A stretch of DNA of 64,000 nt from Euglena gracilis (lineage: Eukaryota): the NCBI GenBank assembly GCA_039621445.1, contig CP154954.1, positions 43,627,847 to 43,691,846 of the forward strand, in the 5' to 3' direction. The notes under the pieces are model-generated. The model had not been told where the DNA came from. It was given only the letters and a program-made list of their open reading frames with translations, and did not search any database. This document shows positions 4,545 through 31,771 of this stretch, in pieces. Both the position numbers and the translations under genes were made by a program. The first letter of the stretch is position 1. The number at the start of each line of letters is the position of its first letter.

Positions 4545-4733
4545 AACGTTGTTAGATTGGTCTCTACAAAATACCCAGCGAACCCAAAGAGCCGCCCAAC
4601 TAGGGTTAAAAACATGGGGGGACCCGAGCGAGGCGCCGAAGGCGCCGAGCGAGGGTCCCCCCATGTGTATTAACCCTAGTTGGGCGGCTCTTTGGGGTAG
4701 CTGGTACCTTGTAGGGCCCAATTTTATCACGTT
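4545..4733. repeat. Family D ~190-bp rod-like hairpin; other copies at 8533-8708, 16396-16583, 17962-18147, 31525-31645 (degenerate), 32331-32519
   Basis: Long imperfect inverted repeat centred on GACCC-GAGCGA-GGCGCC-GAA-GGCGCC-GAGCGA-GGGTC. Six copies in both orientations. Confidence 0.9.
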
Positions 4734-5204
4734 TCTGAACAGCCGGCTGTTGTCCTCTAACTTGAGATTTTTCAAGCCGGTCAATGAAGGAGTACGAGGA
4801 GGTAGGATTTGGCATCATTTTCCACAGTTTTTCATGGATTCTCAAGGCCATTTGACTTTCCCCCACCCACAATCCCTTTTTTTTTTCACCTAGTATGGCC
4901 TGGAGCTTGGCTCGGGGTCAATGTGAAATGAATTTTTGGTCCCTCGAAAAGTCGCAAATTTCGTCCCAGAAGGTCCCGAAAAGAGGCATGTTTCCCCCGT
5001 GTCCCCCCCCGTGTCCCCCCCCGTGTCCCGCCCCACCCCCCTCGTTTTCCAGGACCAGCAGCATTTTCATTTGTTTGGGTCATCCAGAAACTGATTACAC
5101 ACTGGGGTTTCAATTCACGGGGCATGAAATTGTGAATTGGACCAAAAAAAATTGTCAAAAAATGCCTCGAAAATGCCGGACACCACGGCGTGAAGCACAT
5201 CAAT

Positions 5205-5306
5205 GAAATGAAGGGCAAGCACCGGGCCTTTCTACTCACAGATACAGAAAAATTGTGGGCTTTAGCCCATATACAGGGCGTATAACGGTGTATGCCCACA
5301 ATTTTT
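5205..5306 (+). mobile_element. Degenerate 3' end (subTIR + terminal hairpin) of family E
   Basis: agggcaagcaccgggcc...aaaaattgtgggc...gcccacaattttt resembles 21189-21283. Confidence 0.6.
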
Positions 5307-5460
5307 ACTACAAAAAAGGGGGCGGACGCTGGTTCTGTCCTGAACCCGGCGTACGGGGACGCCGGGTTCAGGACAAAACCGGCGTCCGCCCCCCCTTGTT
5401 TAAAGCGGCGTTTTAGAGACGCCGGGTTCAGGACAGAACCGGCGTTCACCCCCTTCGGGC
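5307..5460 (-). mobile_element. 3' end fragment of family A (terminal hairpin + subTIR), tail-to-tail with family E end
   Basis: actacaaaaaaggg...hairpin...cttgtttaaagcggcgttttagagacgccgggttcagg matches 9183-9330. Confidence 0.75.
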
Positions 5461-5869
5461 CAGGGAGCACTTAGAAATATGTTCACTGGCGTTCCCCTTT
5501 AGGTCGAGGGGGGAACAGCCAAAATTTCCCAAAGTTAATTCCGAAAAAAACAAACCGAGGGGGTTCAAACATAAAGTCTCCCCGCCCGAACTCTGAAAAA
5601 TCCATGGGGGTTCCAGCCCTATTCCCCAACCGTATTTCTGAAGAAAAAAAACCCAGCGGGGTCCAGCCAAAATTTCCCAACCGTGATACAATGAAAAAAC
5701 CCAGGGGGGTCCAGCCAAAATTTATCAACTGTGATTCTGAAAAAACGCACGGGGGGGGGGGGGGTCCAGCCAACATTTAACAACCGTGTTTCTAAAAAAA
5801 TCCCAGGGGGGTCCAGCCAAACTTTCCCAACCGTAATTCTAAGAAAAACCCAGGGGTGGACAACATTTT

Positions 5870-6100
5870 ACTCACAAATTGTGGCTGAGCCCAGATTTCA
5901 GCCTGAAAACGTGTTCAGGAGGGGGCCCCCCGAAGGGGGCCCCCTGAACACGTTTTCAGGCTGAAATCTGGGCTCAGCCACAATTTGTTTAAAAACGTGT
6001 TCAGAGCCGGCCAAATGCCTGCCCTGAAATTCGTGGTCATGATTCACGCAAGGGGTCAAAAACGGGAATTTGTGAAATTCGGACCCAAAAAACGGCGCCC
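5870..6100 (-). mobile_element. 3' portion of family G with intact ~115-nt terminal hairpin
   Basis: Near-perfect inverted repeat 5874-5988 (loop cGAAg on +), followed by subTIR ttaaaaacgtgttcag...gtggtcatga. It is the reverse complement of 15630-15810. Confidence 0.8.
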
Positions 6101-7064
6101 TACAGGCCCGGGCGCAAACCGCAAGTACATTAAATACGTCAGGAATTAAACCGCAAGGAATTTAATCCGGTGGGGCCCCGCCAGTCGGGGAATTAAATCC
6201 GGTCGCCCTTTTTTCCGCCGATTTTTTTTCTCTTCGGCGTCAGGGTTACGTCCCTCGCATTGTGTCAGAGATTTTTTTTTGTGTCGGTTCGCAAACACCA
6301 GCAGAAATAAACCATTTTTCAGACTAAGTTTCAACTCCGCATTTTTGTGTAAAGGGGGCCTTCAAACCGAAAAAATGTTCCATTGCTGGACCCTTTTTCC
6401 GGGGCGTTGACTGGCGTGGACCCCCCCTCTCCCCCCCGGGGGTCCACGACTAAAAAAAACCCCTGCCCCCAAACTGGCCACTGGTGGAAAATAAGTTGAG
6501 TGGAAAATTGGCAACCACATCCACATCACCAGATCAATTTCCCAGTCAAAAAAACAGTTTGTTGCAAAATGGTGTCATGCTGGCCCAGGGCCTTTTCAGG
6601 CCACTGGTGTCAAAATGGTGTCAGTGGGGGGGGGGGCTTTGCAGGCCCAGTTTGCAGGCCACTGAAAATGAAAATTGAACTTTTCAGATAGTTCCACACG
6701 GGAAAGGAAACACATTTGTAAATCACAACAATGCAGCAGAAAAAAAAGGATGCACTATGTTACAAAAAAATGCAATGCAGCCAATGCAGCAGTTACAAAA
6801 CATCTTCTTCTCCGGTTTCTCTGTTCTTCAGTTTCTCTCAATTCACCTGATGAAAAATACATGCATCCAAACACAACGGATGATGCCACAGAAAATACCC
6901 ACAGAAAGAGGCATTGCATTAAAAAGCCATTTGATGCCACAGATGCATGCCACAGACATTTGATGCAACAGCCACAAACTTTTCATCAAAATTCATTTTC
7001 CCAGGCTACAGTGGAAAAGATCAACACAGACTTTCACTAGAAATGAGCATTTCAGCAGAACAAG

Positions 7065-7383
7065 GGGGGGGTAGATTTGGCCTGGGGGGGGGGGGTTGTG
7101 GGCAGACCCTAGGGTCGCCAAAGGTCGCCATGGTCGCCAAAGGTCGTGGGCAGGTCGATGTCAAAAAATGCGCTCCACGGCAAATTAGCGCAACATACAC
7201 ACAAAAGGTGTTGCACACACAAGGGATTTTTTTTTTTAGGGCCCTGGAACAGTTGCCTACGCCGCTACAATGCAAAAAAGACTGAGTAGGAAATACCCAT
7301 AGCGACCTTTGGCGACCTTTGGCGACCGTGGGCAGACCCTAGGGTCTGCCCACAACCCCCCCCCCAGGCCAGATCCGGGAGCC
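7065..7383. mobile_element. MULE-like MITE
   Basis: Long imperfect TIR (gat(t/c)tggcctggggg...ttgtgggcagaccctagggtc) with flanking direct repeat cagaacaag (7056, 7384). Confidence 0.55.
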
Positions 7384-7567
7384 CAGAACAAGGGACAGGG
7401 GTCACACCTTCAACTGTGAAATTGTTTACCTTTAAATTTGCCCATTGCTGCATCTTCTGCCTGCACTCTTGGGAGTCCTGGGGTGTAGAGAAAAAATCGT
7501 TTGATTGGAAAGGGACATAAACCTATCTGTTGAACTTCTCAGCAGCTTAAACCAACTCTTGTACTGC

Positions 7568-8531
7568 TTAAGCCGGCGTTTGAGACGCCGGGCTCAGGAC
7601 AGAACCGGCGTCCCCCCCCCACGGGCTTCCGGACGCCGGTTCTGTCCTAAAGCCCGGCGTTAGGAATGCCGGCTTTGTCCAAAGCCCGGCGTCCGATTTT
7701 CATTCCTAAAAATGTCACCAAAAGAGTCCAAAAGTGGCCCTAAGGTGCTGGTATGAGTGTTTCAACCATCAAGGACAATGAATTTTGCCATCCGGGGACC
7801 ACTAGGGTGGATATCCAAATTTGGTGAAAATTGGCCCAGACTTGGAAATAGAGTACCGTGCAGCGTGGAAAGATCTGATGAGCACCGCTGGTCGTCTGTT
7901 GAAAAGAGCTTTCGATCGAGGGGTAACTTGGTACCCTAACGTTGCACGCAGCCCGAGATACGCTCGCGATCGTCGGATCGGCCAGAATCTGAGTCGAAAT
8001 TTGTCGCAATTTTCAGTGATTTTTGGTTTAAGATGCTTAATAAACCTTACAGAAACGTTTTTCCTCTTCGAATCAACGACCTGAGGGCCTTGGGGGGGCA
8101 CCAGAGTTGTGAAATTAGGATTCCCCACTGACAGAAAATAAGAGCTCCAGGCGACCTGGCTGAATTTGGTGGTGATCGCCAGTCGTCTGATGAAAAGTGC
8201 TTTCGATCGAGGGGTGATTTTATACCTGGACGATTGAAACAGCCAGAAATACCCTCGCGATCGCCGGAATTTGGTGAAGTGCAAAGTGGTGTGACATTGC
8301 AGATCAGTGGTCGGAGATTGGTCCTGGGAGTGTCCTTTGGCCGAAGGTTGGGGACGCCGGTTCTGTCCTGAGCCCGGCGTCTCTAAAACGCCGGCTTAAA
8401 CAAGAGGTGGCGGACGCCGGTTCTGTCCAAAGCCCGGCGTTCCAAACGCCGGTTCCGTCCTTCGGACGGAACCGGCGTTTGGAATGCCGGGCTTTGGACA
8501 GAACCGGCGTCCGACACCTCTTTTTTGTAGT
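7568..8531 (+). mobile_element. Family A element, complete (asymmetric TIR + terminal hairpin)
   Basis: 5' TTAAGCCGGCGTTT subTIR (7568-7615), inverted subTIR 8350-8399, ~120-nt hairpin 8402-8522 (loop cTTCg), end TTTTGTAGT. Confidence 0.8.
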
Positions 8532-9911
8532 AAAATTGGTGTCTACAGGGGACCCAGCGAACCCAAAGAGGCGCCCAACTAGGGTTAAAAACATTGGGGG
8601 ACCCGAGCGAGGCGCCGAAGGCGCCGAGCGAGGGTCCCCCAATGTGTATTAACCCTAGTTGGGCGCCTCTTTGGGGTAGCTGGTCCCCTGTAGGCACCAA
8701 TTTATCACGGATGAAACACCGACCCTTCAAATGGTCGATCGACTACCATGCCCCCCCCCCCCCGATAGTGTCCCCTACCTGGCCCAACCAAGGGGGGTGA
8801 GGCAGGGGTGGGGGGGGGGGGCTGTGGCCCCCCCGGTTAAAGTCCCCGGGGAACCTTCCCCGGGGGGGAGGGGGGGGGGTACTTTCGGCGGTGAAGTTCA
8901 CCGGTGAAGTTCACCGGTGAACTTCACCGTTTTGATGGTTGGGGGTTGAAATTTTCATGGGTAAAATTTTGCTCCTTTCCTCTCAAAATGGTCATTTTGA
9001 GGTTGATGCTTCATGGAATTTTTTTTTATTTTATCGAAATTTCCGAAAACTTGCCCAAAATGCCATTTTTGGCCATTTTTGGCCAAAAAAGTAGTCTCTT
9101 GGTGAACTTCACCGGTGAAATTCACCGATGGGTTAGGCAGAGGGGGGGGGGAGGGGGTCCGGGACCCCCCGGTGAACTTTCTACTACAAAAAAGGGGTGG
9201 CGGACGCCGGTTCTGTCCAAAACCCGGCGTTCCGGAACGCCGGGTTTTGGACAGAACCGGCGTCCGCCACCCCTTGTTTAAAGCGGCATTTTAGAGACGC
9301 CGGGTTCAGGACAGAACCGGCGTCCCCAACCTTCGGTCAAAGGACACTCCCAGGACCAATCTCCGACCACTGATCTGCAATGTCACGCCACTTTGCATTT
9401 CACCAAATTCCGGCGATCGCGAGGGTATTTCTGGCTGTGTCAATCGTCCAGGTACAAACTCACCCCTCAATCAAAAGCTCTTTTCATCAGACGACTGGAT
9501 ATCACCACCAAATTCAGCCACGCCGCCTGGAGCTCTTATTTTCTGTCAGTGGGGAATCCTAATTTCACAACTCTGGTGCCCCCCCAAGACCCCTCAGGTG
9601 GTTGATTCGAAGAGAAAAAACGTTTCTGTAAGGTTTATTCAGCATCTTCAACCAAAAATCTCTGAAAATCACCACAAATTTCGACTCAGATTCTGGCCGA
9701 TCCGAAGATCGCGAGCGTATCTCGGGCTGCGTGCAACGTTAGGGTACCAAGTAACCCCTCGATCGAAAGCTCTTTTCAACAGACGACCAGTGGCGCTCAC
9801 TAGATCTTTCCACACTGCACGGTACTCTATTTCCAAATCTGGGCCAATTTTCACCAATTTTGGATATCCACCCCACTGGTCCCCAGATGGCAAAATGCAT
9901 TGTCCTAGATG

Positions 9912-11560
9912 GTTGAAACCGTGTATTGGGGCTCTGGCTTCACGCCCGAACCGGCGTTCTGGACGCCGGTTCGGCGCAGAAATTTCTGCGCCGAACCGGT
10001 GTCCAGAACAGGGAATTTCTTAAGGACCCCCCGGGGGGGGGGGTCCAGCCTCCGGCTGGCAAAAAGGCTGCTGGCTGGATTTGAGCTGCTGGCTGGACCC
10101 CCCCCCCCCGGGGGGGAGGGGGGGGGTGGGGGGGGGGGGGGGGGTGCACGGGGGCTGGAGCGGGCTGGGCTGGGCTGGGTCGAGGAAAAACAAAATTTTC
10201 TAACACATTTTGGCCATTTTCGACATTTTGATGGGTGGAGCCAGATCAAGGCTGGGGGGCTGTGATGGAGGGGCTGTGATGAGGGGGAAAAATGCAGGGA
10301 TAAGTGAGCTGGGCAGCCCAGTTGGCTGGCCGGCCTGCGGCCGGCTGGGCCGGCCTTCGGCCGGCTGGCCCGGCCTCCGGCCGGGCTGGACCCGACTTTA
10401 TTTCAGTCGACCCCCCGGGGGGGGGGGGGGCTCCCAGCCCGAATTTGGGCTGCTGGCTGGATTTGAGCTGCTGGCTGGCTGGACCCCCCCCCCCGGGGGG
10501 TAGGGTACCCTCCGGCTTAAGAAATTCCCTGGTCCAGAACGCCGGTTCGGGCGGGAAAACGGCGTCCTGGGGACCGAAAATGAAAAGTGCCAAAAAGTGT
10601 CCAAAATGGTTTGTAGACATGAGGCAATCATATCTGAGCACTTTTTGGGGGGTATTTGGCCAGAAATTGGGGTATTTTGTGCAACAATTTCCATTTGGCC
10701 AAATCTGGGGATTTTCTGAAATAGAATACCATGCAGCAGGGCTGAAATCTAAGGCCATCTAAAACCCTTGAGAAGGGTTATCGATCAAGGGGCAACATGG
10801 CAGGTGAACAGTGGATTTTGGAATTTGCGAAAAGGGTCCAAAAATCGTAATTCTGAAAAAACCCAAGGGGTCCAGCTAAACTAACCATAGTTCTGAAAAA
10901 CCCAGGGGAGGGTCCAACCAATTTTGAAAACACCCAGGGGGGCCAAAATTTCCCAACTGTAATTAACATTTCCCAACAATTTTGAAAAATTCCCGGGGGG
11001 GTCCAGCCAAAATTTCCCAACCGTACTTCTGAAAAACCCTAGGGGGGGCTTTTTTCAACCGTGTTTGTGAAGAAACCCAGCCAAAATTTCTGAACCGGAA
11101 TTCTGAAAAAAGGGGGATCAAATCCCAACCATAACTCTGGAAAAAAAGCCAGCGGGGTCCAACCGAAAATTCGGCATTGCAAATCTGAAAAAATCTGGGG
11201 GGGGTCCAGCCAAAATTTCCCAATCGTGATTCTGAAAAAACCTAGGGGTGGTCCAACTGAAAATTTTTTCCAAATCGTAATTCTGAAAAAAAAACCTTTC
11301 GATTGATGGGTAACCTGGCATCAGACGGATGAAAACTTCAATCGGCCGATCGACATGGCCATGAGCCCAAAGGATCCCAAAAATGCCCAAAAATGTTCAG
11401 AAACTGGGTATTTAGGGCGAAATTGGCCTTTATTCCTTGAACGCCGGTTCGGGCGTGAAGCCAGAGCCCCTAATCCACGGTTTCAACAACTGTGTCCAGA
11501 ACGCCGGTTCGGGCGTGAAGCCGTGTTCTAGAACGCCGGTTCGGGCTGCCGCCCGAACCG
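9912..11560 (+). mobile_element. Family B copy 1 (terminal hairpin truncated)
   Basis: subTIR gttgaaaccgtgtattggggctctggcttcacgcccgaaccggcgttc at 9912, inverted copy at 11439-11488, followed by a partial hairpin. Confidence 0.75.
10009..10531. mobile_element. hAT-type MITE
   Basis: TIR CAGGGAATTTCTTAAG; perfect 8-bp TSD gtccagaa. Confidence 0.85.
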
Positions 11561-12644
11561 GCACGGTACTCTATTTCCAAATCTGGGCCAATTTTCACCA
11601 ATTTTGGATATCCACCCCACTGGTCCCCAGATGGCAAAATTCATTGTCCTAGATGGTTAAAACAGTCATACCAGGAGCTTAGGGCCACTTTTGGGCACTT
11701 TTGGTGACATTTTTAGGAATGAAAATCGGACGCCGGGTTTTGGACAAAACCGGCGTTCCTAACGCCGGGTTTCAGGACAGAACCGGCGTCCGGAAAACCC
11801 GTGGGGGGGGACGCCGGTTCTGTCCTGAACCCGGCGTCTCAAACGCCGGTTTAAACGGTGAACTTCACCATAGGGGGGGGGGGAGGGGGGGGGTCAAAAT
11901 GACCAAAGTCTACTGCCTGATCTCCAAGGGGCGGGCATGGGACACTATCGGGGGGGGGGGGACACTATCGGGGGGGTCAATAAAATTCCTTTAGGACCGG
12001 CCGGCCGGGTCCCGTTGCAGGGGTATGGGACACTATCGGGGGGGGGGGGACACTATCGGGGGGGGGGGCATGGTACCCAGAAACACCCCCCACCGACTTA
12101 AACAGGGTTTTGGACCCCACCGAAATGTCGGTCGACCAGTTGGGTAGTCGACCGACAAGTTGGTCGACTAGTCGATCAACTACCCAGAACCCCCCCCCAG
12201 GCTAGGTCATTGAGCCGGGTCAGAATTAGGGTTACAGTTTGGGTTAGGGTTAGGGATGGGGTCAGAGTTGGGGATATGGTTCAGGTTAGGGCCCCGAGCG
12301 AGAAATTGGTGATGGACTTTTTGGTGCTCGCTAGCGACCATTGGTGATAAGGCTGGTGATAAGCCCTCTAAAAAAGTTTTTAAGCTCCCCCCCCTAAAAG
12401 CCTTCAGAAACCCCCATTCGGGGGTCCATTTGTGAAAAATTTTGTATAACACACAAGGGTATTTTTGGTAATATGCGCGATTTGGCCATCCTTGCCTTGC
12501 ACACACAAGGGGATTTTGTTATTTTGGGCGGGGGGGGTCCGGGGGGGGGGGGCGGCAGCCCCTCCCGGAGGAGGCCGTAGGCCGACTAAGTTTGCATATC
12601 GGGGTTCATTGGGGAGCGCGATCTGGCCCTCCTTGCCTTGGATA

Positions 12645-12795
12645 GGGTTAGGGTTAGTTAGGGTAAGGGTTAGGGATAGGGTTAGGAATACGGTTAGGGT
12701 TAGGGTCAGGGTTAGGGTTAGAGTTAGGAGTACAGTTAGGGATAGGGTCAGGGTTACGGATAGGGTTAGGTTTAGGGTTAGGGTTAGGGTTAGGA
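12645..12795 (+). repeat. Degenerate interstitial (TTAGGG)n tract; smaller tracts at 12225-12290, 16132-16198 (CCCTAA) and 33517-33540
   Basis: Tandem ttaggg / gtcagg / gatagg hexamers. Confidence 0.85.
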
Positions 12796-14840
12796 TTATG
12801 GTTTGGGGTTGGCCATGGAACTCAACTGATTTGGCCTTTCACCCCCTTTTTTTTCAATATGGGACATTTTCCGACGTTTTTAGGGACATTTTGATGTGTT
12901 TCCTTGCATTTTACATTGAATTAAGAGAATTTAAATTTTGAGGGGGGGGGCTTAAAAATTAAAAATGGGGGGGGGGTATTGCAGTACAGTGGAGGTCGGG
13001 CCGACCTGGTCGGCCCGACCTCCAGAGGTCGATAAGCCATGGCCAGAGGTCGGCCCGACCTAGGTCGGCCCGACCTCCAGAAGTAGCATGGCCAATATTC
13101 CGCACGGAGCCCTAGCGACTGGTCGCTAGCGACCATTGGTGGTCGGAGCGACTGGTCGCTCCGACCACCAATTTTAAGTCCACTCCCCCCCTTCGAAAAA
13201 GTTTTTAAGCTCCCCCCCCTCGAAAAAAAATTTATTCAAATTTGGAGGAAAATGACTCAAAACCCACCCAAATGCCTTCCAAACCCTCCATTCGGGGGTC
13301 AATTTGCAAAAAAAATTGAGTAATACCTTCTCTTTGCACCTGTTCTGTGAAACCATAGCCATAGTGTGATTTTATCCTTACCTTGCACACATAAGATTAC
13401 ATTCATTACGGAGCGCGACTTGGCCATCCTTGCCTTGCACACACAAGGGGATTTTGTTATTTTGGGCGGGGGGGTCCGGGGGGGGGGGCGGCAACCCCCC
13501 CCCCCCGGAGGAGGCCGTAGGCCGACTAAGTTAGCACAAAGGGAGTTTGTTGGGGGGCGCGTTTTGGCCATCCTTGCCTTGCACACCCTTACCTTGCACA
13601 CATGCAAATTAACCAAAAAAATTTTGGAGGGGGGGGCTTAAAAAAATTTTTAGAGGGGGGTGGACTTAAAATTGGTGGTCGGCCCGACCACCAATGGTCA
13701 GTAGACTTGGTCGCTAGCGACCGACCGGTCGCTAGCGACCACCAAAAGTTCCACGGCCAATTTCCCGCAATGAGCCCCCATATAAGACCCCCCCCCCCTG
13801 GCTGGCCGAAGGCCGGCCCTTTGGCCGGGACCGACCCCCCCCATATAAGACCCCCCCCATATAAGACCCCCCCCTGGGATTTTGGCTCCCGAGGGGGGGT
13901 CTTACCCCCCCCCATAATTGACACCCCCGACACCCTCCAAACCTCCCAGGTAGTGTCAATTATGGGGGGGTGTCAATTATGGGGGGGGTCCGAACGGACA
14001 AGGCAAAATACAAGGGACTCCTGACAAACCCCTTGGTCCGTCTCCTTCGACACGAAGGTCGGGAAGAACAAGCCGTGGGGGGAATGATAACTGCAGCTGC
14101 TTCATTTTGGGAGCCATAACTGTCAAAGAGATAGGTAGACATTTGACAAAGCAAAAGCAAGGCGGAAAAGACGCGAGCGGCTGAAAAAATTTTCGGTCGG
14201 GGGGGGGGTGTCAATTATGGGGGGGTGTCAATTATGGGGGGGGGGGGTGGTATATGGGGGGGCATGGTAACGAGTTTCTTCAATGAAATTTTCTTTTTGT
14301 TTTTTTTTGATGTTTTTTTTAACTGTTTTTTTTTTAAAAAAAACACGTTGTTTTGTTTTTTTTAAAAAAAACAAAAAAAAATGCCCACTATGCAACCCAG
14401 GGCGGGTCTAGCCAAAACCTCCCTGCCGTATGTCTGCAAAAACCCAGGGGGGTCCACCCAAAATTTCCCAACACTACTTTTGAAAAAACCCAGCGGGTCT
14501 AGCCAAAGTTTCTGCAATGTGTTTCCTTGCCAGCAATATGTTTTGCCCTGTAATCGCTGCGGCTGTGGCAACCTGTATGCCTAGCAATCCTCCCCCCACC
14601 TCAGAAACTGCAAAACGCTTGCCGTCACATCCATGATATTTTGCACTCAGCAATTGTGCGTCTTATCCCCTTCAGCCAAGGAGATTTTCGTTTCTGGGGT
14701 CACATTTTTGCAGACTTTTTTGCACAAAATACAGTCCCAAACCGGACGCCGGGTTTTAGGACAGAACCGGCGTCCGGAAAACCCGTGGGGGGGGGGACGC
14801 CGGTTCTGTCCTGAACCCGGCGTCTCAAACGCCGGTTTAA

Positions 14841-15810
14841 TTAAAAACGTGTTCAGCCCGCCAAATGCCTGCCCTGAAACTCGTGGTCATGAACACGTTT
14901 TCCATGAGGGCATTTGTGGCAATGACACGTTTTCCATTAAGGCATCTGTGGTCAGGCACGTTTTCCATTAAGGCATCTGGCAATGACACGTTTTCCATTA
15001 GGGCATCTGTGGTCAGGCACGTTTTCCATTAGGGCATCTGTGGCAATCACGTGTCGTCCGAAATCGTCCGAAAATGCATTTTGCGAAATCGATCGACGAT
15101 CGCGAGCGGATCTCTGGTTGTGAAAGTTGTTCAGGAACAAACTCACCCCTCGATCGAAAACTCTTTTCATAAGATGACTAGTGGTGACGACCAAATTCAG
15201 CCACGCCGCTTGGCACTCTTATTTTGTGTCACTGGGAAATCCTAATTTCACAATTCTTGTACCTCCCTGGACCCCAGATGCCCTCGATTCGAAGACAAAA
15301 ATCGTTTCTGTATGGTTTGTTAAGCATTTTAAACCAAGCAGCACCCAAAACCACCACAAATTTCGACTAAGATTCTGGCCGACCGACGATTGCGAGCGTA
15401 TCTCGGGCTGCGTGCAACGTTAGGGTACCAAGTTACCCCTCGATTGAAAGCTCTTTTCAACAGACGGCCAGCGGTGGTCATCAGATTTTTCCACGCTTCA
15501 CGGGGCTCACAAAGTTTGCAGTGCGTTCAGTTTAGGAATGGGGGAGGGGTAACACGTTTTCCATTAGGGCATCTGTGGCAATGACACGTTTTCCATAGGC
15601 ATCTGTGGTCAGGCACGTTTTCTATTAGGGCGCCGTTTTTTAGGTCTGAATTTCACATTTTTGCGTTTTTGACCCCTTGCGTGAATCATGACCACGAATT
15701 TCAGGGCAGGCATTTGGCGGGCTCTGAACACGTTTTTAAACAAATTGTGGTTGAGCCCAGATTTCAGCCTGAAAACGTGTTCAGGGGGGCCCCCTTCGGG
15801 GGCCCCCCTG
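14841..15810 (+). mobile_element. Family G element (hairpin truncated just past the loop), head-to-head with a family A 5' end (14743-14840)
   Basis: subTIR TTAAAAACGTGTTCAG...GTGGTCATGA at 14841, inverted at 15686-15739, half-hairpin 15740-15810. Internal ~32-bp tandem repeats (cacgttttccattagggcatctgtgg) and an internal segment homologous to family A. Confidence 0.75.
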
Positions 15811-17090: not shown

Positions 17091-17123
<33 letters not shown>

Positions 17124-19922: not shown

Positions 19923-21288
19923 TTGTAACCGTGTTTAGAGGCCCGGCGCCTGCCCTGTATTTCGTGGCTATGAACACGGAAAACAGGGCATATTTTCTTA
20001 ACCCGGCAATATGCCCTGTTTTTCGTGGTAAGGTGAGCACGAAAAACAGGGCATATTGCCGTGTTCAGGGTTTTCTCCCAAAATTTAAGACCTTTCAAAC
20101 AAAGAACAGAATTATTTTGAATCACTTTGAATTGCTTTGAACCCGAGTGGAGAGCAGACAGATGATGGAATGGCACACGAGGAGGGACGAAGTCGGTGCA
20201 CGACCAGTGCAACGACGAACAGCGCAGTGCGTGGATGATCAGATGGGGACACACTAACGGGGTTTGCACGAATGACACACCCACGATCCATCAAACGGTC
20301 TGCTCCACTGCACCGTGTCAAGGATGCCAGGAAGTTCTGCAGGTTGCAGAATTTCCTCAGGGGGGTGCGCAGCCTCACCAATGGCTTTTTTGGTTGCCTC
20401 ACGGGTCAGAGCAGCCGCCATCAATTTTTGCAGCCGTGGGAGTTTCGTTTCAGAGGATGGCTGAGATGACGCAAGGATGCGGGCAACTGCGTTCAGGTAT
20501 CCCCTGAACGTCGATGCTTTCAATTGTCAGAATTTGAATTGCTGGCCACACTGTGCCCGGCGTTGGTCCTCGCATTGTTTGATGACCGCTTGCCCATCAA
20601 ACAACAGTGCAGGATCAAGCTCCCAAGCTGCCCAAGCACAAAGGAAAGCGTCTAGTTCGTCATAGACAGTGCAAAGCGCATTGCAGACGTCCTCGAATTC
20701 AAGGAGGTGTGCCAATGCAGATTGCTCTGTCCCTTCTGAACCGGATGCTTTCTTTTTGGTAGCCTCCGCCAGAAGGTTACCATGCAAGGGGTCAACATCA
20801 GGGTTCTTTCTTTTATCCCAACCCTGCTTAATTGTGGCCAAAAATTCAGGAACTTTTGGGGGTTGTGGCAACATTCGGTCCATGGTGTTGGCAGCTTTCT
20901 TTGCCATTTTTCAAAAACAGACTGAGGAAGAACGCAATGAGTATAAATAAATGAAGCAAATGGCACAAGAACATTTTCCAGGACGCCGTGGCCATGGTTT
21001 GGGGCATTGGGACATCATTTTCATTCACTGGTTCCTTACCACAAAAAACAGGGCATATTTTCTTAACCCGGCAATATGCCCTGTTTTTCAACACGAAAAA
21101 TAGGGCATATTGCCGTGTTCAGGAATTTTCCAGGAAAATCAACAAAAAAGTGCCCGAAACCATGGTGTGAAGCATACCCACGAAATACAGGGCAGGCGCC
21201 GGGCCTCTCTAAACACGGTTACAAAAAAATCGTGGGCCATAACCCGTATTCAGGCCGTATAACGGGTTATGCCCACGATTTTTATATA
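19923..21288 (+). mobile_element. Family E element (asymmetric TIR + terminal hairpin) carrying a coding remnant
   Basis: subTIR TTGTAACCGTGTTTAGAG..GCCCGGCGCCTGCCCTGTATTTCGTGG at 19923, inverted at 21178-21224, hairpin ~21223-21283, end TATATA. Subterminal repeats aaaacagggcatat. Confidence 0.8.
20112..20920 (-). pseudogene. Degenerate ORF resembling the N-terminal half of a tyrosine recombinase (to box I)
   Basis: ORFs 20527-20907 and 20254-20523 are one frame split by a single TGA (…KF*QLKASTFRGYLNAVARIL…KKAIGEAAHPPEEILQPAELPGILD…). After a frame change comes PRTALFVVALVVHRLRPSS, resembling R-x-A-l-l-x-l-x-x-x-G-l-R-x-x-E. Judged by eye only. Confidence 0.4.
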
Positions 21289-22489
21289 ATTGGAGGAGCC
21301 CAGATAACCGCGGTGTAACCGCGGCGAGAACAAGAACAAGGGGGGTGTACCGCTCGCGACCCCCGCGACCCCCCCGCGACCCACACATGGAGGGTTTCCG
21401 CATCCCAGTGGGAGCCAAAAAATGGCACCTAATTAGGAATTAGCACCCAAATTAGGAATCAAAATTTCCAAAAATGTGTGATAAATTCCCAATCGGATCT
21501 ATTTTTGGACACAAAAGTTCAAAAAGGAGGTCACATGTGACGTTGTGTGTGAGGTCACACTGGTCACGTGTGACCCGTCAAAACTGCCACATTCCCCCTG
21601 CGACCCCCCCCCCGCGACGTTCAGCGAGAAGGGTTAAACTGTTTGCAAGAACCTTAACCCTAACTCTTCTCCTTCAAATAACCTCATAATGACCCGTTTC
21701 TGGCCTCAAGAGAACTGACTTGTCATTTTAGAGGTGGGGGTCATTTAGCGAAGGAGTAAACCCCCCCAAATAACACCCCCCCCCCCCAAGTAACACCCCC
21801 CAAATGCCACCCCCCCCTCTGGGGCCGATTTCGAGCGCCAAAATAACACCCCCCCTGTTTTCTTTTGGTTTTCCATGTGTCAAATAGCACACACCCAAAT
21901 AACACCCCCCCCCTTTAGGGTGGTGACTGAAATTTCCGGCACCTGAAATTTCACCAAATTTCACGATTTTTTTTTATTTTTATTTTTCTTTCCGACCACT
22001 TTTCACGAACCACCCTACCCCCCCTGGGGCTCCAGCTCATGTGCCCAAATAACACACCGGGGGGGGGTGTTATTTGGGAGGGCTACCGTTTTTTCGGGTG
22101 GTCTTACTTTGGGGGGATTTCCCATTTTGCCGACGCCCCCGAAACTCTGCATCCACTACCTTGCAAGGCACCTTGCCCACGTAACCGCGATGTAACCGCG
22201 GTGTAACCGCAGTGATAACCGCGGTTTGGGCTCCTCCTATGGCAATTCTTGATACCACCCATCCGGATATTTTTTCTCATTCCTAACCTAAATAAGATGC
22301 GTTGAGATGCTACTTTGCGGCTCATTGCGGGAAATTGGCCATGGAACTTTTGGTGATCGCTAGCGACCGGTCGCTAGCGACCAAGTCTACTGACCATTGG
22401 TGGTCGGGCCGACCACCAATTTTAAGTCCACCCCCCCCTCTAAAAATTTTTTTAAGCCCCCCCCCTCCAAAAATTTTTTTGGTTAATTT

Positions 22490-23140
22490 GCATGTGTGCA
22501 AGGCAAGGATGGCCAAAATGCGCCCCCCAACAAACTCCCTTTGTGCTAACTTAGTCGGCCTACGGCCTCCTCCGGGGGGGGGGCGGCAGCCCCCCCCCCC
22601 CGGACCCCCCCCGCCCAAAATAACAAAATCTCCTGGTGTGTGCAAGCCAAGGATGGCCAAGTCCCGCTCCGTAATGAATGCAATCTTATGTGTGCAAGGT
22701 AAGGGTGTGCAAGGCAAGGATGGCCAAAACGCGCCCCCAACAAACTCCCTTTGTGCTAACTTAGTCGGCCTACGACCTCCTCCGGGGGGGGGGGGGGCTG
22801 CCGCCCCCCCCCGGACCCCCCCCCGCCCAAAATAACAAAATCCCCTTGTGTGTGCAAGGCAAGGATGGCCAAGTCGCGCTCCGTAATGAATGTAATCTTA
22901 TGTGTGCAAGGTAAGGGTGTGCAAGGCAAGGATGGCCAAAACGCGCCCCCCAACAAACTCCCTTTGTGGTAACTTAGTCGGCCTACGGCCTCCTTCGGGG
23001 GGGGGGGGGTGCCCCCCCCCCCCCCCCCCCCCCCCCCGGACCCCCCCCGCCTAAAATAACAAAATCCCCTTGTGTGTGCAAGGCAAGGATGGCCGAGTCG
23101 CGCTCCGTAATGAATGCAATCTTTTGTGTGCAAGGTAAGG
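22490..23140. repeat. Tandem triplication of a ~205-215 bp unit (inverted homolog at 13380-13610)
   Basis: Repeated gtgcaaggcaaggatggccaaaacgcgccccc...aacttagtcggcctacggcctcc units. Confidence 0.8.
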
Positions 23141-24443
23141 ATAAAATCACACTATGGCTATGGTTTCAGAGAACAGGTGCAAAGAGAAGGTAGTACTCAA
23201 TTTTTTTTGCAAATTGACCCCCGAATGGAGGGTTTGGAAGGCATTTGGGTGGGTTTTGAGTCATTTTCCTCCAAATTTGAATAAATTTTTTTCGAGGGGG
23301 GGGGGCTTAAAAACTTTTTCGAAGGGGGGGGTGGACTTAAAATTGGTGGTCAGAGCGACCAGTCGCTCCGACCACCAATGGTCGCTAGCGACCAGTCGCT
23401 AGCGACCCTGGCGACCGGTCGCTAGCGACCACCAAAAGTTCCATGGCCAATTTCCCGCTCGGAGCCCTACTTTGCCAAATTTGAGGCATTTTGAGCCTTT
23501 TGTGGCCCTTATTGGTGCCAGTTTATGACATTTTATGGACATAGAGGTGACATAGAGGTAGAGGTAGAGGTAGAGGTGGGTCAGATAGAGGTAAACCCCC
23601 CCCCCAAATAGTATTGCACCCGCAGCTCTATTGGACGGCCGCCTCCAGCGGGGGGGGTGCAGCAGTATTTGGACCCGCAGCACTATTGGACTGGGTGCCT
23701 CTTAGTCCCGGCCTATCACCACAGGCACCCTTTTTGTCTACACAATGTCCTTCTCTGAGGCTAGTGAGGTCGTGTGGTTCATCTTCGGACGACTTTTGTG
23801 AGTTGCTTGGGTGGGAATTTGCCCCCTTTCCCCTCTCTGCGGATTAAAAAAGGTGCCTGCAGTAGGCTGCACCAGCTTCTACGCATTTCACATTGCTGTG
23901 ATTTGGGGGGGGGTGCAGCATTATTGGACGCTCGCTTCATCCGGCAGGGGGTGCAGCACTATTTGGACCCGCAGCTCTATTGGCCCCGCAGCACTATTAG
24001 GGGGGGTTTAGAGGACTTTGACCTCTACCTCTACCTCTATCCAGCCCTGTTTCGGGACCCGATTTTCCATATGGGTCGGTACAGACCCCCCCCCCTCAGC
24101 TCAAAAAATATTTGAAGGTTTTTACAATTGACATCTTTTCTTCATCATAGAATGAAGTAATGTCACATTTTTTGAAAAACCGCCACAAGCGAAGCTCCTT
24201 TGCTGGAAGTCCAGGAAATCCAGACCAGGCTTCTTTTGCGGTTTTGAGCTTGTGGAAGATGATTTCTAGGGTGTTGAGAAGAAGCCTTATTTCGATGATG
24301 AGACACACCATGACGAGGTGTTGCAAGAATTAGACAAGGTGCACATGTTCCCCCCCCCCTGAACAACAAGTCCTTTTATCTAGAATACCCACCTGTTTGG
24401 GTTTTATTATTGCACTCATGTGCTCATGTGTGAAGAGCAAGGT

Positions 24444-25604: not shown

Positions 25605-28084
25605 GAGCAAGGTCGCGTGTATCCTGTCTGAGCTCCTGAGGGGGTTGGCAATGCCGGTGCACTGCCAGTTTTTTGGGGAGGTTCAATTCCAAATCCCTTT
25701 ATGAAAAAATAATGGAAAGAGGTATTTCAAGTGGCTTTTGGGCATATCACTTGTTTTTCTTGCTCCCCCCCAAGTTTTGCCCTCTGCTACATTTTTTGGT
25801 TATTTTATGAATGTTTTGAATTTTGTGCAGGTTGCAAATGAAACCCGTTCATCTTGCCGCCATTTGTGATCACAGGAGGCATACGTCATCATTTCCAGCC
25901 CCGGGTAGAATATTGGCCATGCTAGTTCTGGTGGTCGGGCCGACCTAGGTCGGCCCGACCATCTGTTGTCGACCTCTGGTGGTCGACAGAAATGGCCACT
26001 GTACCACAACACCCCCCAAAGGATTTTCAAAGGACTTTTGACTGTAGGTCGGTCCGACCTGGTCGGCCCGACCTGATGTTCCTGCCGACCATATGGTCGG
26101 CCCGACCAAATGTTAAATGTTGGTCAGGCCGACCATGTGGTCGGTAGAAACGACCTCTATAGTTTTCCATTTTGGAAGCATCCAAACCCTTGCCAAACCC
26201 TATGGAACATAAAGAAGGGCTGTTTTAGCATTTACCTATACCATGCCCCCCCTTGCTGTTCCCGTCCTGTGGCCCTCTTTTGGGTCTATGGGAACGAAAA
26301 TTAAGGGGGGGAACAGTGAGGGGGGGGAACGAGCTCCCCGCCCCTTACTGTTCCCATGGGCCATGGGCTGACCAACCAAGTTAGACCCAAAGGCCACCTA
26401 AAATCCCAAAAATGAAGTTTTTTGGTTCACATGCTTGAAAATTGCACCTCCACAACATCGATTGGCGTTGGTTTGGAGTTTGACGGGATTGAGAGCACCT
26501 AAAACCGACCCAAAAATTCCTTATTTCTCTCTTTATCCCAAGAATCTTTTACAAATAGTGCCATGACACTGTACTAAAACCGTGTATTGGGGCTCTGGCT
26601 TCACGCCCAAACCGGCGTTCTGGACGCCGGTTCAGCGCAGAAATTTTTGTGCCGAACCGGCGTTCTGGACGGGCGGGAAGATGGCTTCCAGGGGACCGAA
26701 AATAAAAACAAAAAACGTTCAAACTGGTTAGTAGACACGTGGCAATCACATCTGAGTAGCTTTTGGGGGGCATTTGGCCAGATATTGGGAGCAATAATCC
26801 GGCCAAATTTGGACCGAAATAGAAAAAGCAAATCTAACTGCAAAGCCCTTGAGAAGAGCTTTCGATGGGGCAACATGGCATAACGACTTTGCAAACTTGG
26901 GCGATATTTTCAGACCTGCAGTGCTGGGTTGGCACCAAATTTGGGAATTTCGATTTGGACAAACGCATGGGGCCATTTCCATTTTTTTGTCTTTTTTTGA
27001 AATTCTTTCATCACTGAAAATTTTTTTTTGCAAATTTAAAACATTTTTTCGAAATTTTTGCTTTTTTGTGTTTCTTTTTCTTTTTTTTTTTTTTTTTTTT
27101 TCGCATTTTTTTCTTTTTTTGCGCATTTTTTTATTTGGGAAGATGCGCATTTTTGCGCATTTTTTTGCGCATTTTTTCGATTTTTTTCGCGCATTTTTTT
27201 GCGTCTTGTTGTTTTGTGCTCTATTCTGCCCCTTTTTGAAAGAATTTTTTGCACATTTTTTGCGCTTTTTTCCATTTCCCCACCTTTTTTTACACTTTTT
27301 GGAGGCATTTTGTCCATATTCAAGAAAAAAACCTTTGGGTGATGAGGTGTGGGTGCTCATCCAATGATGATGAGGACACTAGGGTTTTCAGAGACCCCGC
27401 ATCGAATCCTTCTCCCCTGGTCACAAGTGCGGGGCACCATGGCTGACATTGTTGGTTATGGTGAACAGAGAGTGACGCCTTGCTCATGCATTTTTTTTGA
27501 CCAAAAATGCCTTCATTTCAGCTGTTTTTGGTGATTTTGGTTTAATTTTGGGCTCATTGTTGTAAATTTTTCTAAGTCCTTTTTCCCTTAGGAATGTACA
27601 AACTCAGCGCATTTTTTGCGCATTTTTTTTGCGCATTTTTGCGCATTTTTTCCGAGGGCCGCCCAGCGCATTCCCCCCCCTCCTGCACCTGAGGTGTGGG
27701 ATTTCGCAAATTAAGATGTCAAATTTTGGAATGCACGATCGCTGAAAATAAGCTGTGTGCATCATGGCTGAATCCTGTGGCCATCTGTCAAAAGCCCTGA
27801 GAAGAGCTTTCGATCGATGAGTAACATGGCACCAGACCTGTGAAAACTTCAATGGGCTGATCGACATGGCCATGCGCCCAAAGGAGCCCAAAAGGTGCTC
27901 CAAAATGTTCAGAAACTGGGTATTTGGGGCGAAATTGGCCGTGATTCTTTGAACGCCGGTTTTGGCGTGAAGCCAGAGAGAGCCCCTAATCCACGGTTTC
28001 AACAACTGTGTCCAGAACGCGGTTCGGGCGTGAAGCCGTGTTTCAGAACGCCAGTTCGGGTTTGGAGTTTGACGGGATTGAGAG

Positions 28085-28377
28085 CAGGCTTCTTTTTAAG
28101 TCACCTGATCCCCCCCCCCGGGGGGGGGGGGGGGGGGGTGGTTTGGGTCGGGGCGGTCCCCCCCCCCCCGGGGGGGGGGGGGGTCCCGCGCCGGAGGCGC
28201 TGGGTATACCTTTTCGGCGCGAAGCGCCGAAAATTTTTGAAAATTGCCTTTAACGGGCCCGATTTTGGGGGGTCCCCGCCCCCCCCCCCCCCCCCGGGGG
28301 GGGTCCCGCGCCACCCTGGGTGGGTGGGGGGGGACCCCCCCCCCTCCCCCCCCCCGGGGGTCTTAAAAAGAAGCCTG
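28085..28377. mobile_element. hAT-type MITE
   Basis: TIR CAGGCTTCTTTTTAAG; perfect 8-bp TSD attgagag; empty site at ~26488. Confidence 0.9.
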
Positions 28378-29226
28378 ATTGAGAGCACCTAAAACCGACC
28401 CAAAAATTCCTTATTTCTCTCTTTGTCCCAAGAATCCTTTACAAATAGTGCCATGACACTGTACTGAAACCGTGTATTGGGGCTCTGGCTTCACGCCCAA
28501 ACCGGCTTTCTGGACGCCGGTTCAGGCAAACCGGAGTCTGGGGGACCCAAAATAAAAAGTGCCAAAAAGTGTCCAAAAGGGTTTGTAGACATGTGGCAAT
28601 CATATCTGAGCAGTTTTTTGGGGGGTATTTGGCCAGAAATTGGGGTATTTTGTGGAACAGTTTCCATTTGGCCAAATTTGGGGAATTTCTGAAATAGAGT
28701 GCCATGCAGCACGGCTGAAATCAAAGGCCATCTGCTGAAAGTCTTTGAGAAGGGCTATCGATCAAGCGGCAACATGGCAGGTGGACGGTGGATTTTAGAA
28801 TTTGCGAAAAGGGTCGGAACATGCGATTGCTGATTTTCAGGGCGCTATGCAGTGTGGTCTGAGGGTACCAAGCGAAAGGTTGGGGAGAGCTTTCGATTGA
28901 TATGCTGCATGGCACCTGAGGTGTGGGATTTCACAAATTAAGATGTCAAATTTTGGAATACACGATCGCTGAAAATAAGCGCTGTGTGCATAATGGCTGA
29001 ATCCTGTGGCCATCTGTCAAAAGCCCTTGGGAAGAGCTTTCAATTGATGGGTAACATGGCATCAGACGCATGAAAACTTCAGTTGGCCAATCGACATGGC
29101 CATGAGCCCAAAGGAGCCCAAAAGGTGCTCAAAAATGTTCAGAAACTGGATATTTGGGGCGAAATTGGCCGTGATTCTTTGAACGCCGGTTCGGGCGTGA
29201 AGCCAGAGCCCCTAATCCACGGTTTC

Positions 29227-31057
29227 TATACAAAAATCGACCGACACTAACAGATTCAGCAGGGGCGCCGGGCGGCTCGCTTCGCTCGCTCGCGCCTAGC
29301 GCCCCTGTTGAATCTGTTAGTGTCGGTCGATTTTTCTAAAACCTATTTTGTCTGGGCCCGACGCCCCATGCTTTTGAAATGATAAAATGAATTGGGCTTT
29401 TGAAAGGGGATGAATGGAAAGAATTGCCGACAGTTTGGGGGAATCCGAAGGAAAGTTTGGGGGGAGTTGGCTGAATAAAGGAAATTGGATTTTTGGTTTT
29501 TGATTTTTTTTCTTTTTGTTGATGATCATTTTTGAAAGTGTTTTGAAATTTGGGTTGATTTTGAACAGAAGTTTTTGTTTGAAATTGATTTTTGAGATGA
29601 ATTTGGTGAAGACAGTTTGTGATTTTTTTGTGGATTTTGATTTTGTGATGGTTGTGGTTTTGAAAGGTTGTGATGATTGAAGGTTTGGATGAATTTTTTT
29701 GAATTTTTGAAATTGAATTGAAATTTTTTTTTGTTTTGAATGTGATGGTTTGTTGGGATGTTTGAAGGTTTTTGCGTTGAGTCGATGGGAAAGTTTTTTT
29801 TTTTTGAAGCTTGACGACGTTGAGATTTTGAAGTTGTGATTGAGTTGATTTTAAAATAAAATTGAGAAACAGATTGAGGAATGTTGTTTGCTTTTGATTG
29901 TTGTTTGTTTTTTTTTTTTTTTTTTATTTTGATTTTTGACGCCTGAAATTCATTCGACCGAACCGCCTGGACGGAAATATGGCCAAAAAAGTGGTTTTTG
30001 GCCCATTAACGGGCGCCTGAATGGAAATCGACTGACATAAACAGGCGCCTGAATGGAAATCGACCGACATAAACGGGCGCCTGAATGGAAATCGACCGAC
30101 ATAAACGGGCGCCTGAATGGAAATCGACTGACATAAACGGATTCCGATGTCATGGAAATCGACCAACCTTTTGTGTCCTTTTCTGAATGCTTTTTTGTTC
30201 CATTTTGGGACATTGTCAATTTCAGCCTGAAATCCGTTATGTCGACCAACCTTTTTTCTGATTTTTCTGAATGCTTTTTTCTTCCATTTTGACAGAATAG
30301 AATAATAACAATAGAAATTCCAATACAGGCGTCGAGCCCAGAAAACAGGTTTTAACAGTTCCACCCCTCACCAGAAAGCTTTTCTTTCAGACGACCAGCG
30401 ATGACAACTGAATCGGGCCAAAAAATTATAATCGAAAGTTCCGTCCTTCCGTCCGTTCCATCCAAAATTCAGCCAGCTGTGATCACCTGACCCCTCCCCC
30501 TCCCACCCCCTCCAAAAAAAAATCATCCAAATATGAAGGAAAATGATTCGAAACCCACCCAAATGCCTTCCAAAACCCCCAACCCGACCACCAATGGTCA
30601 GTGGCCATGGTCGCCAGTGACTAGTCGCTAGCGACCATGGTCGCTAGGGACCAGTCGCTAGCGACCACCAAAAAATCTATCACCAATTTCCCGCAATGAG
30701 CCGCAAAATTTGTTTTTTTGTCTGGTCCATAACGCCTCCAGAACCCCACAGGGCCAAAAATGTCGAAAAAAGGGAAATCCAAAATGTCCAAAAGTCACTA
30801 AAAATTCCCAATCTGACCAGCAACAGATTTCAATGGAATGGAAATCGACCGACATAAACGGGCGCCTGAATGGAAATTGACCGACATAAACGGGCGCCTG
30901 AATGGAAATTGACCGACATAAACGGGCGCCTGAATGGAGATCGACCGACATAAATGGGCGCCTGAATGGAAATCGACTGACACAAACAATTTCAGGCTGA
31001 AATCCGTTAATGTCAGTAGAATTTCAAGACAGGCGTCGGGCCCAGAAAATGGGTTTT
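29227..31057 (-). mobile_element. Family C element (terminal hairpin + asymmetric TIR + 32-bp tandem repeats), no TSD
   Basis: Hairpin 29232-29336; subTIR 29338-29365 / 31031-31057. Inserted precisely into ccacggtttc|aacaactgtgtcc (empty sites at 11475 and 27991). Confidence 0.85.
30008..30985. repeat. Two arrays (30008-30140, 30836-30985) of a 32-bp unit
   Basis: Unit aaacgggcgcctgaatggaaatcgaccgacat, about 4 copies per array, no spacers. Confidence 0.9.
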
Positions 31058-31771
31058 AACAACTGTGTCCAAAACGCCGCGCCGGTTTGGGCGTGAAACA
31101 AGAACGCCGGTTCGGCCGGTTCGTTCGGCCGCCCGAACCGGCGTTCTGGTTCTGGAACATTTCACGCCCGAACCAGCGTTCTGGACGCAGTTTTCGTATC
31201 AGTTCCCATCCCCCCTATGGGAACAGTAAGGGGGGGGGAACAGTAAAGGGGGGGGGCATGGTAAGCTGGGGCTACTTGGTGGCAATACGACGCATGGCCG
31301 TCCTTGCCTTGCTCACACAAGGGGATTTCTTTATTGGGGGGGCGGGGGCAGGGGCGGGAGCATCCCCGCCAGTCGAAGGCACCTTGCAAAAAAAATGCTT
31401 GCTGATGGCGGATGGATGCCTTGCTGATGGCTTTTTCCTGTTGCCAAAAAGATTTTCTGACGTTATTCGAAGGAGTAGGGTTAGGGTTACGATTCTTATC
31501 CAAACAGCAGAAAATTTCCCACTCAACGTTGTTAGATTGGTCTCTACAAGGCACCCAGCGAACCCAAAGAGCCGCCCAACAAGGGTTAAAAACATGGGCC
31601 CTCGCTCGGTGCTTTCTGCGCCTCGCTCGGGTTCCCCCATGTGTATTCCCCCCCGAGCGGCTCCGTGCGGATGATGACGATCCCCGAGGTGGTGCCGACC
31701 ATGGTCGGGCCGACCTCGGTCAGGCCGACCATTGGCTATGGCTTATCGACCATTGGAGGTCGTGCCGACCT

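Follow-up and report, generated by a model that had tools for sequence, protein, structure and literature searches.

Five related mobile-element families with long inverted repeats and terminal hairpins in Euglena gracilis, tentatively assigned to the Helitron2/Helentron group

In a stretch of 64,000 nucleotides (nt) from Euglena gracilis (GenBank assembly GCA_039621445.1, contig CP154954.1, positions 43,627,847 to 43,691,846 of the forward strand), referred to as the window throughout, five families of mobile elements, here named A, B, C, E and G, were found to share one unusual end design. A first-pass annotation made from the sequence letters had already proposed such a common design, and the five families were recovered within 1-3 nt of the positions it gave. 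We interpret them as at least five related non-autonomous rolling-circle families of the Helitron2/Helentron type (HLE2, HINE-like) with enlarged ends, and give this assignment a probability of roughly one half. It appears to fit best because of the layout of the ends, the TT-anchored insertion without target site duplication (TSD) and the likeness of targets to the elements' own 5' junction, and also because of the polarity with which copies fail, the internal tandem arrays and the exchangeable cargo. The window is eukaryotic, very rich in repeats, with a GC content near 0.5 and numerous G/C homopolymers. Positions are those of the window, and a slash within a motif marks the point of cutting or insertion. 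The following copies were delimited:

7570-8532, plus strand: A1, complete copy of family A, with 5' repeat 7570-7615, 3' repeat 8350-8397 and hairpin tail 8398-8532, ending in TTTTTTGTAGTA
9182-11852, minus strand: A2, complete copy of family A carrying the nested B1; limits exact from empty-site contigs
5306-5471, minus strand: A3, 5'-truncated copy of A with 3' repeat and hairpin only, its 3' end abutting the 3' end of E2
14746-14838, minus strand: fragment comprising the 5'-most ~91-93 nt of A, broken off where an internal palindrome has its apex
9915-11560, plus strand: B1, inside A2, with an exact 5' end at GGTT/GAAACC, 3' cut ~12 nt past the hairpin apex
26576-28060, plus strand: B2, with an exact 5' end, 3' cut just short of the hairpin apex
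28466-31199, plus strand: B3, complete copy of family B, with 5' repeat 28466-28510, 3' repeat 29181-29226 and tail 31058-31199, ending in TTTTCGTAT
29227-31057, minus strand: C, complete, with 5' repeat 31057-31021, 3' repeat 29380-29338 and tail 29337-29227, ending in TTTTTGTATA
19925-21288, plus strand: E1, with 5' repeat 19925-19972, 3' repeat 21173-21222 and hairpin tail 21223 to ~21288
20257-20907, minus strand: open reading frame (ORF) within E1, of 217 codons and interrupted by one in-frame TGA (20527-20529)
5193-5305, plus strand: E2, diverged 3' end of an E-like element, 5'-truncated
14843-15813, plus strand: G1, with the 5' repeat from 14843, 3' repeat 15686-15737, hairpin cut ~10 nt past the apex
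5869-6102, minus strand: G2, 5'-truncated copy of G, with 3' repeat 6042-5991 and full tail 5990-5869, ending in TTTGTGAGTA

Several limits had to be corrected from those first proposed, namely to 7570-8532 for A1, to 9182-11852 for A2 and, at the 5' side, to 14843 for G1 and 19924/19925 for E1, the 3' end of which lies at ~21286-21291 and is obscured by an abutting element with terminal inverted repeats (TIRs) at 21292-22237. Element C is inserted in B3 between the 3' repeat and the hairpin tail of the latter, and the A fragment and the 5' end of G1 stand head to head, 4 nt (AATT) apart.

In each of the five families an inverted repeat of 43-52 nt occupies the exact 5' end, its 3' partner is subterminal and lies 66-142 nt inside the 3' end, and a long hairpin abuts this 3' repeat directly and extends up to 6-10 nt from the 3' end. 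Compared with the reverse complement of the 3' repeat, the 5' repeat matched in 46/48 columns in A1, 44/48 in A2, 47/50 in E1, 35/43 in C, 42/46 in B3, 44/46 in B1 and 48/52 in G (5' repeat of G1 against 3' repeat of G2). From the 3' repeat to the terminus 135 nt were counted in A1, 98 in A2, 66 in E1, 111 in C, 122 in G2 and 142 in B3, and the tails finish with a T-run followed by GTAGTA (A), GAGTA (G), GTATA (C), ATATA (E) or CGTAT (B). The families are related by more than their layout: their 5' dodecamers (AAGCCGGCGTTT, GAAACCGTGTATT, GTAACCGTGTTT, AAAAACGTGTTC, AAAACCCATTT) are homologous over ~12 nt and follow a common RWAAC(C/G)GTGTTT-like pattern, and in every family the 3' repeat contains two extra nucleotides (one in B) 11-13 nt from the terminus. 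Together with the homology of the E and G repeats (26/31), which had been pointed out before, the dodecamer and the shared bulge of 1-2 nt bear out the earlier description of a radiated family. An internal motif said to be common to A, B and G was likewise recovered, with seven occurrences at up to three mismatches in A1, A2, G1, B2 and B3 where none was expected.

The bodies of the elements follow other lines than the ends. A module of 413 bp (83.5% identity) is common to A and G but inverted in one relative to the other, and E and G, though sister families, carry different cargo, so that bodies are interchangeable among families. Internal tandem arrays resembling those of HINEs occur in B1, G1 and C.

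The tails were folded as single-stranded DNA and compared with 200 shuffles each. All proved to be far more stable than expected, with z-scores of -19.9 in A1 (-83.8 kcal/mol), -16.5 in A2, -10.3 in A3, -20.5 in G2, -13.2 in C, -7.7 in E1 and -7.5 in B3, and no shuffle (0/200) reached the stability of any tail. Long terminal hairpins had been predicted, and their presence is thereby established for tails of 66-142 nt (z -7.5 to -20.5). Stem lengths were ~22 bp in E, 38 bp in C, 43-58 bp in A, ~55 bp in G and ~50 bp in B, where the stem is imperfect. In the rest of the window no comparable hairpin was found except in a palindromic family of miniature inverted-repeat transposable elements (MITEs) and in low-complexity runs. 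Among the three A copies, four of the 58 pairs have changed on both sides and 97.8% of the cells are still paired, a level reached by only four of 500 shuffles, and slid controls gave 0-1; A1 possesses in addition a symmetric extension of 37 nt at the apex. Between E1 and E2 the outer stem of 13 bp was kept through a compensatory change from C-G to T-A.

The hairpin is part of the element, because empty sites lack hairpin and element together and because it is built from the motif of its own family, with the same 3' terminus retained by three A copies from different contexts. A 16-mer of family A occurs 18 times (up to two mismatches) and only in A ends, compared with 0.01 expected occurrences. 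Matches to this 16-mer in metagenomes (80 of 120 stretches listed) lay on unrelated contigs and were rejected as chance, because each listed stretch held one match in place of the several found in every A end.

Evidence on insertion sites came from contigs of four DNA runs (X1-X4) placed on the window at 80% likeness, and the joints discussed here are the 15 best supported, with 4400 more on record. For A2, a joint from 9181 to 11853 was present in 14, 11, 10 and 14 contigs of X1 to X4 with 0 nt ambiguity, and A2 with its nested content is therefore an insertion of exactly 9182-11852; in the orientation of the element the site reads CCGTTT, element, GAAAGTT. A 10-mer is common to both flanks of A2, but was rejected as a TSD: the empty contigs carry both copies, which makes it a repeat structure of the host. 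Exact empty sites for C are provided by B1 and B2 at CACGGTTTC/AACAACTG, where C inserted at GTT/GAAACC without TSD, as had been noted before. E1 and the abutting TIR element were jointly missing from paralogous contigs, with a joint from 19923 to 22238 (5, 6, 7 and 8 contigs, ambiguity 1 nt); because the missing segment includes the TIR element, the 5' junction of E1 is exact and its 3' terminus is blurred by a few nucleotides. B2 and B3 were compared with a paralogous empty site at 3211-3302 (79% identity), in which similarity returns no more than ~8 nt away from the ends proposed here and the flanks show no repeat. The absence of a TSD, previously shown against an empty site only for C, is thus exact for A2 and C, holds within 1 nt for E1 plus neighbour and is approximate for B; among the joints listed there is no empty site for G. 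This comparison of filled and empty sites, in which repeat and hairpin are lost jointly, also contradicts the possibility, raised earlier, that the hairpins are independent insertions.

At eight distinct 5' junctions a T precedes the element in all eight and TT in seven, and RAA follows five of the six readable 3' ends. The leading TT, first read as part of the element, belongs to the target, as the empty sites of A2 and C show; insertion takes place at TT/RAA and, by the empty sites of A, B, C and E, without duplication or loss of target sequence. Behind the cut, the targets of A2 (GAAAG), C (GAAAC) and B1 (GAAAC) resemble the element's own 5' junction, and B2 inserted at the 5' junction of B3, which was already resident. 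Read on the other strand, the place where hairpin and 3' repeat meet shows a T-run and then 5'-end-like sequence, and so mimics a 5' junction; C is inserted exactly at this reverse-strand mimic in B.

When the whole 963-nt strand of A1 was folded as single-stranded DNA, nt 1-46 paired with the 3' repeat, the hairpin followed without a gap and the terminal 6-10 nt remained unpaired. Taken as one block, the 3' repeat and the first hairpin arm are hence complementary to the 3' end joined to the 5' end, and in the modelled structure they would act as an internal splint on which the two termini lie next to each other while the GTA-type tail bulges out.

Incomplete copies are of two kinds. Those truncated at the 3' side (B1, B2, G1 and the A fragment) have exact 5' ends in 4/4 cases and stop at most ~12 nt from a palindrome apex, and those truncated at the 5' side (A3, G2, E2) consist of 3' ends only. 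B1 stands between two direct copies of A sequence, 106 nt as aligned (9817-9922 and 11561-11666), of which ~98 nt are flank, and B2 is followed by a ~104-nt copy of its own 5' flank and then by B3 (26472-26575 against 28059-28086 plus 28377-28465); the joints of both duplications show 2-nt microhomology. A further joint, from 9975 to 20892, links the first 61 nt of B, up to the apex of the 5' palindrome, to the 3' part of E with CC in between (0, 1, 1 and 4 contigs, i.e., three of the four runs), which suggests chimeric elements with the ends of two families. Taken together, truncated and chimeric copies suggest copying or transfer from 5' to 3' that fails at hairpins.

Coding capacity was assessed with 413 ORFs, 134 of at least 125 amino acids (aa) and 150 plus 129 of 75-124 aa, after 21 low-complexity ORFs had been removed. 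The sole conventional Pfam match was a CCCH zinc finger (E 1.8e-8) in a 354-aa open frame at 361-1422 on the minus strand, and the Rfam search of the whole window gave 0 matches. The ORF on the minus strand of E1 has its own ATG, ~260 bp of upstream sequence inside the element and a single TGA, and its product shows 99% identity, in the matched part, to a Joint Genome Institute (JGI) protein whose frame is open. It belongs to a family of 95 representatives (proteins P0004-P0096), which Pfam and PDB sequence searches did not recognise beyond sub-threshold helix-turn-helix matches. A structural model of a 439-aa member (pLDDT 81.5), however, was matched by Foldseek to Cre (E 1.2e-7, probability 1.00, 409 columns) and also to Xer, integron IntI and Tn1549 Int, with Cre above the integron integrase; the members bearing this fold comprise 350-490 aa. 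In an alignment to P1 Cre of low hhalign probability (7%), the invariant R, K and R and the conserved Y of the family correspond to R173, K201, R292 and Y324, whereas the positions of Cre H289 and W315 are unconserved. The nearest named Atlas cluster is the eukaryotic ALOG/Phage_integrase (0.98). Judged by these models, the full-length family has the two domains of a Cre/Int-fold tyrosine recombinase and the E1 ORF is the predicted N-terminal (core-binding) half.

The catalytic half was absent from the window in a tblastn search with 96 family proteins, homologues longer than the E1 product were sought in vain, and viral contigs searched with the full-length recombinase held no relative. A product of a Euglena gracilis transcript, 49% identical to the E1 ORF, likewise ends after the N-terminal half, which hints at a short form that has long been maintained. 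Many members of the family end at this point. One full-length member, P0009, is recorded for the plant Genlisea aurea, on a contig of 1.9 kb, and is possibly a protist contaminant.

Other repeats surround and penetrate the five families. A palindromic MITE family of ~190 bp, with inner ends of TTAACCCTAG type that we take to be piggyBac-like, is present at 4548-4731, 8527-8709, 16398-16589, 17962-18153, 31525-31647 and 32333-32517; A1 lies at the edge of one of its copies, and contigs bypass 16619-18184 between two of them. A high-copy element at 10010-10531, nested in B1, possesses CAGGGAATTTCTTAAGG-type inverted ends and CnGn runs, with 190-350 loose-ended reads per run at both borders, 10009 and 10531 (among the best-supported loose ends, 36695 more being on record). 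The TIR element abutting the 3' end of E1 (GGAGGAGCCC...GGGCTCCTCC) contains internal GTAACCGCGG repeats. The insertions 22310-23466 and 7056-7383 share 9 and 11 nt at their joints (22309 to 23467 and 7055 to 7384), and 28087-28376 is surrounded by an 11-bp GATTGAGAGCA repeat; because of these three TSD-like overlaps, transposons that produce TSDs can be said to coexist in the window. Telomere-like interstitial arrays occur at 16129-16197, 12643-12807 and 31470-31485 (CCCTAA/CCCTGA and TAGGGT x27.8).

Under the Helitron2/Helentron reading, an HUH Rep/helicase acting in trans would nick the top strand at TT/RAAAC-like sites, i.e., at the 5' junction of the element itself and at targets resembling it. 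The strand would be peeled off or copied from 5' to 3' and the reaction would end at the 3' hairpin, where the 3' repeat and the first hairpin arm might serve as the splint that holds the termini together for cleavage and joining, be it into a circle or by strand transfer. Failure at the palindrome would leave 3'-truncated, 'one-ended' copies, and the tyrosine recombinase piece in E1 would be captured cargo.

Asymmetric inverted repeats, a 3' stem-loop directly behind the 3' repeat, insertion after TT and the lack of a TSD are described for Helitron2/Helentron elements (PMC3627910, PMC4067079, PMC11417382). All five families agree in their terminal 5' repeat and in a subterminal 3' repeat directly upstream of the 3' stem-loop. 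Further resemblances are the T-rich 3' end, the insertion after T-runs, the unmodified target (A, B, C and E), the internal tandem repeats, the 'one-ended' truncated copies and the palindromic motifs inside the repeats. The comparison drawn by the first-pass annotation therefore stands for layout, insertion after TT and lack of a TSD; it does not extend to the cut, which is T/R, nor to the ends, which are several-fold longer. HLE2 repeats are given as 8-18 nt, with short stem-loops, a 3' repeat 20-60 nt from the end and insertion at T/T (PMC3627910, PMC4067079, PMC5148889, PMC11417382, 10.1101/2025.11.06.686955), ranges which are those of main texts, and longer Helentron stem-loops are possible in the end tables (Additional file 7, PMC4067079).

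A number of points weigh against this assignment. The repeats measure 43-52 nt here vs 8-18 nt, the 3' repeat lies 66-142 nt vs 20-60 nt from the end, and the stems of 22-58 bp are opposed to short ones. The cut is T/R vs T/T, so that one feature that defines HLE2 is lacking, and the elements start with A or G and end in TA, vs T. Hairpins at the 5' end, which in HLE2 involve the 5' repeat, were weak, with z-scores of -3.3 in G (1/200 shuffles), -2.0 in E, -1.6 in A, -1.2 in B and -0.9 in C. Among the 413 ORFs no Rep, helicase or HUH domain was detected with Pfam, nor a partner RepHel, and the recombinase piece with its own start is the only trace of an enzyme in any copy. A full-text search returned seven papers in which both Helitrons and Euglena are mentioned, none of them, judged on titles and abstracts, on Helitrons in Euglena. 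The polarity of truncation, moreover, could be due to host breakage of long palindromes. The functional likeness of the elements is accordingly clearer than their class membership.

The tyrosine recombinase footprint in E1 keeps alive the alternative that the families are recombinase-driven, which had been offered beside the rolling-circle view. As DNA elements they might be moved by a recombinase of the Crypton/DIRS type, with E1 derived by internal deletion from an autonomous element encoding the complete enzyme; the repeated family-specific motifs of both repeats and of the palindrome would be candidate binding sites of the recombinase, and a circle or folded single strand would recombine with TT/RAAAC-like targets without a TSD. 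The 217-codon ORF, with its ATG, upstream sequence and single TGA, speaks for this possibility, as do the Cre-like fold with equivalents of the residues R173, K201, R292 and Y324, the ALOG/Phage_integrase neighbourhood, the short form in Euglena gracilis and the 3-5 nt (RAAAC) which TSD-less targets and element 5' ends have in common. Yet the catalytic half is lacking in the window, where no full-gene copy with these ends was seen either, the sister family G carries other cargo at the same position, as capture would predict, and the recombinase assignment itself meets the low hhalign value, the two unconserved Cre positions and the blindness of Pfam and PDB to the family; Cryptons, furthermore, have no TIRs. 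We consider this explanation unlikely. A more far-reaching version, in which the end design would not be a Helitron trait but the functional part of a novel type of tyrosine-recombinase element, is tentative, though slightly less doubtful: on an ICR-like splint (see below) a single strand or circle would be folded until its ends meet at the unpaired GTA-type bulge, and a Cre-fold ALOG-type recombinase, a full-length relative of the E1 ORF, would exchange one strand with TT/RAAAC targets.

The splint also recalls retroelements of the DIRS type. In DIRS-1, the internal complementary region (ICR) pairs with its first 33 nt to the 5' end of the left repeat and with its other 55 nt to the 3' end of the right repeat, and is essential (PMC7192593). 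The elements of the window might be miniature, non-autonomous relatives, the ends of whose single-stranded cDNA would be restored and joined before integration by a DIRS-type tyrosine recombinase without a TSD. They, too, possess near the 3' terminus a block complementary to the 5' and then to the 3' extremity, following the logic of the ICR (PMC7192593), and its dimensions (46-50 nt plus 22-58 nt) suit an ICR better than Helitron2 ends; insertion prefers related element copies and produces no TSD, the gene piece of E1 is of DIRS/Crypton type, and DIRS-like elements are reported from Euglena gracilis (10.64898/2026.05.21.726589). No trace of a transposase, reverse transcriptase, RNase H or gag, however, was found among the 413 ORFs, long terminal repeats, inverted or otherwise, are missing beyond the extremities, and the junctions are exact without a flanking trinucleotide repeat. 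The E1 ORF lies antisense to the direction in which the ICR analogy would place it, and the elements are 1-3 kb long and mostly non-coding. A DIRS-like origin is rather improbable.

Least credible by far are ordinary DDE-type TIR transposons or MITEs that end at the repeats with separate foldback insertions adjoining them: the window is indeed packed with nested TIR elements showing TSD-like overlaps (9 and 11 nt, 11-bp repeat), but symmetric TIRs and a TSD of fixed length are not seen, the 3' repeat lies far from the end, and the empty sites, the family-own hairpin motif, the constant A terminus and a hairpin abutting the 3' repeat in 5/5 families contradict this view. What probability remains falls to an unknown enzyme.

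Compared with Cryptons, stand-alone tyrosine recombinases of eukaryotic mobile elements that lack a true TSD (PMC13465315), the recombinase piece and the TSD-less insertion are similar; Cryptons, however, have neither TIRs nor hairpins and are flanked by direct repeats of 4-6 bp, whereas long inverted repeats are present here and the junctions of A2 and C share 0 nt. A link to the non-conventional introns of Euglena, whose published signature is 5'-N3CDG...CH'GN5-6/R (PMC12501133), was rejected, since by eye it fits none of the five 5' ends. In each family the palindrome behind the 3' repeat is family-specific and built from the same binding-type motifs. Folded single-strand hairpins are used by tyrosine recombinases in bacteria, namely integron attC and the attP(+) of CTX phage. 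These presumably resemble the tails described here as imperfect palindromes (~60-140 nt) containing extrahelical bases, with exchange at a precise point and without a TSD. Should the reading as a new kind of recombinase element be true, the families would be a eukaryotic counterpart of hairpin recombination of the attC/CTX type and would link Cryptons with DIRS elements, and if the recombinase of E were the driver, a new class of eukaryotic mobile element would be at hand.

If, on the other hand, the five families belong to HLE2, the group is extended to a euglenid, and its end design would accommodate repeats and hairpins that exceed the described size three- to tenfold. Detection software in which the TIR is fixed at >11 and <18 nt, as is the range set in the methods of HELIANO (PMC11417382), would reject the ends found here and therefore miss these elements. 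Since the elements are abundant, as seen from a very high summed contig depth, which is not a copy number, a considerable fraction of a large genome may be classified wrongly. The splint geometry, the conserved bulge and the unpaired 3' pentanucleotide are concrete candidates for recognition and cleavage sites, and the copies truncated at the apex with their flank duplications of ~100 bp offer natural records of failed transposition that are informative on termination.

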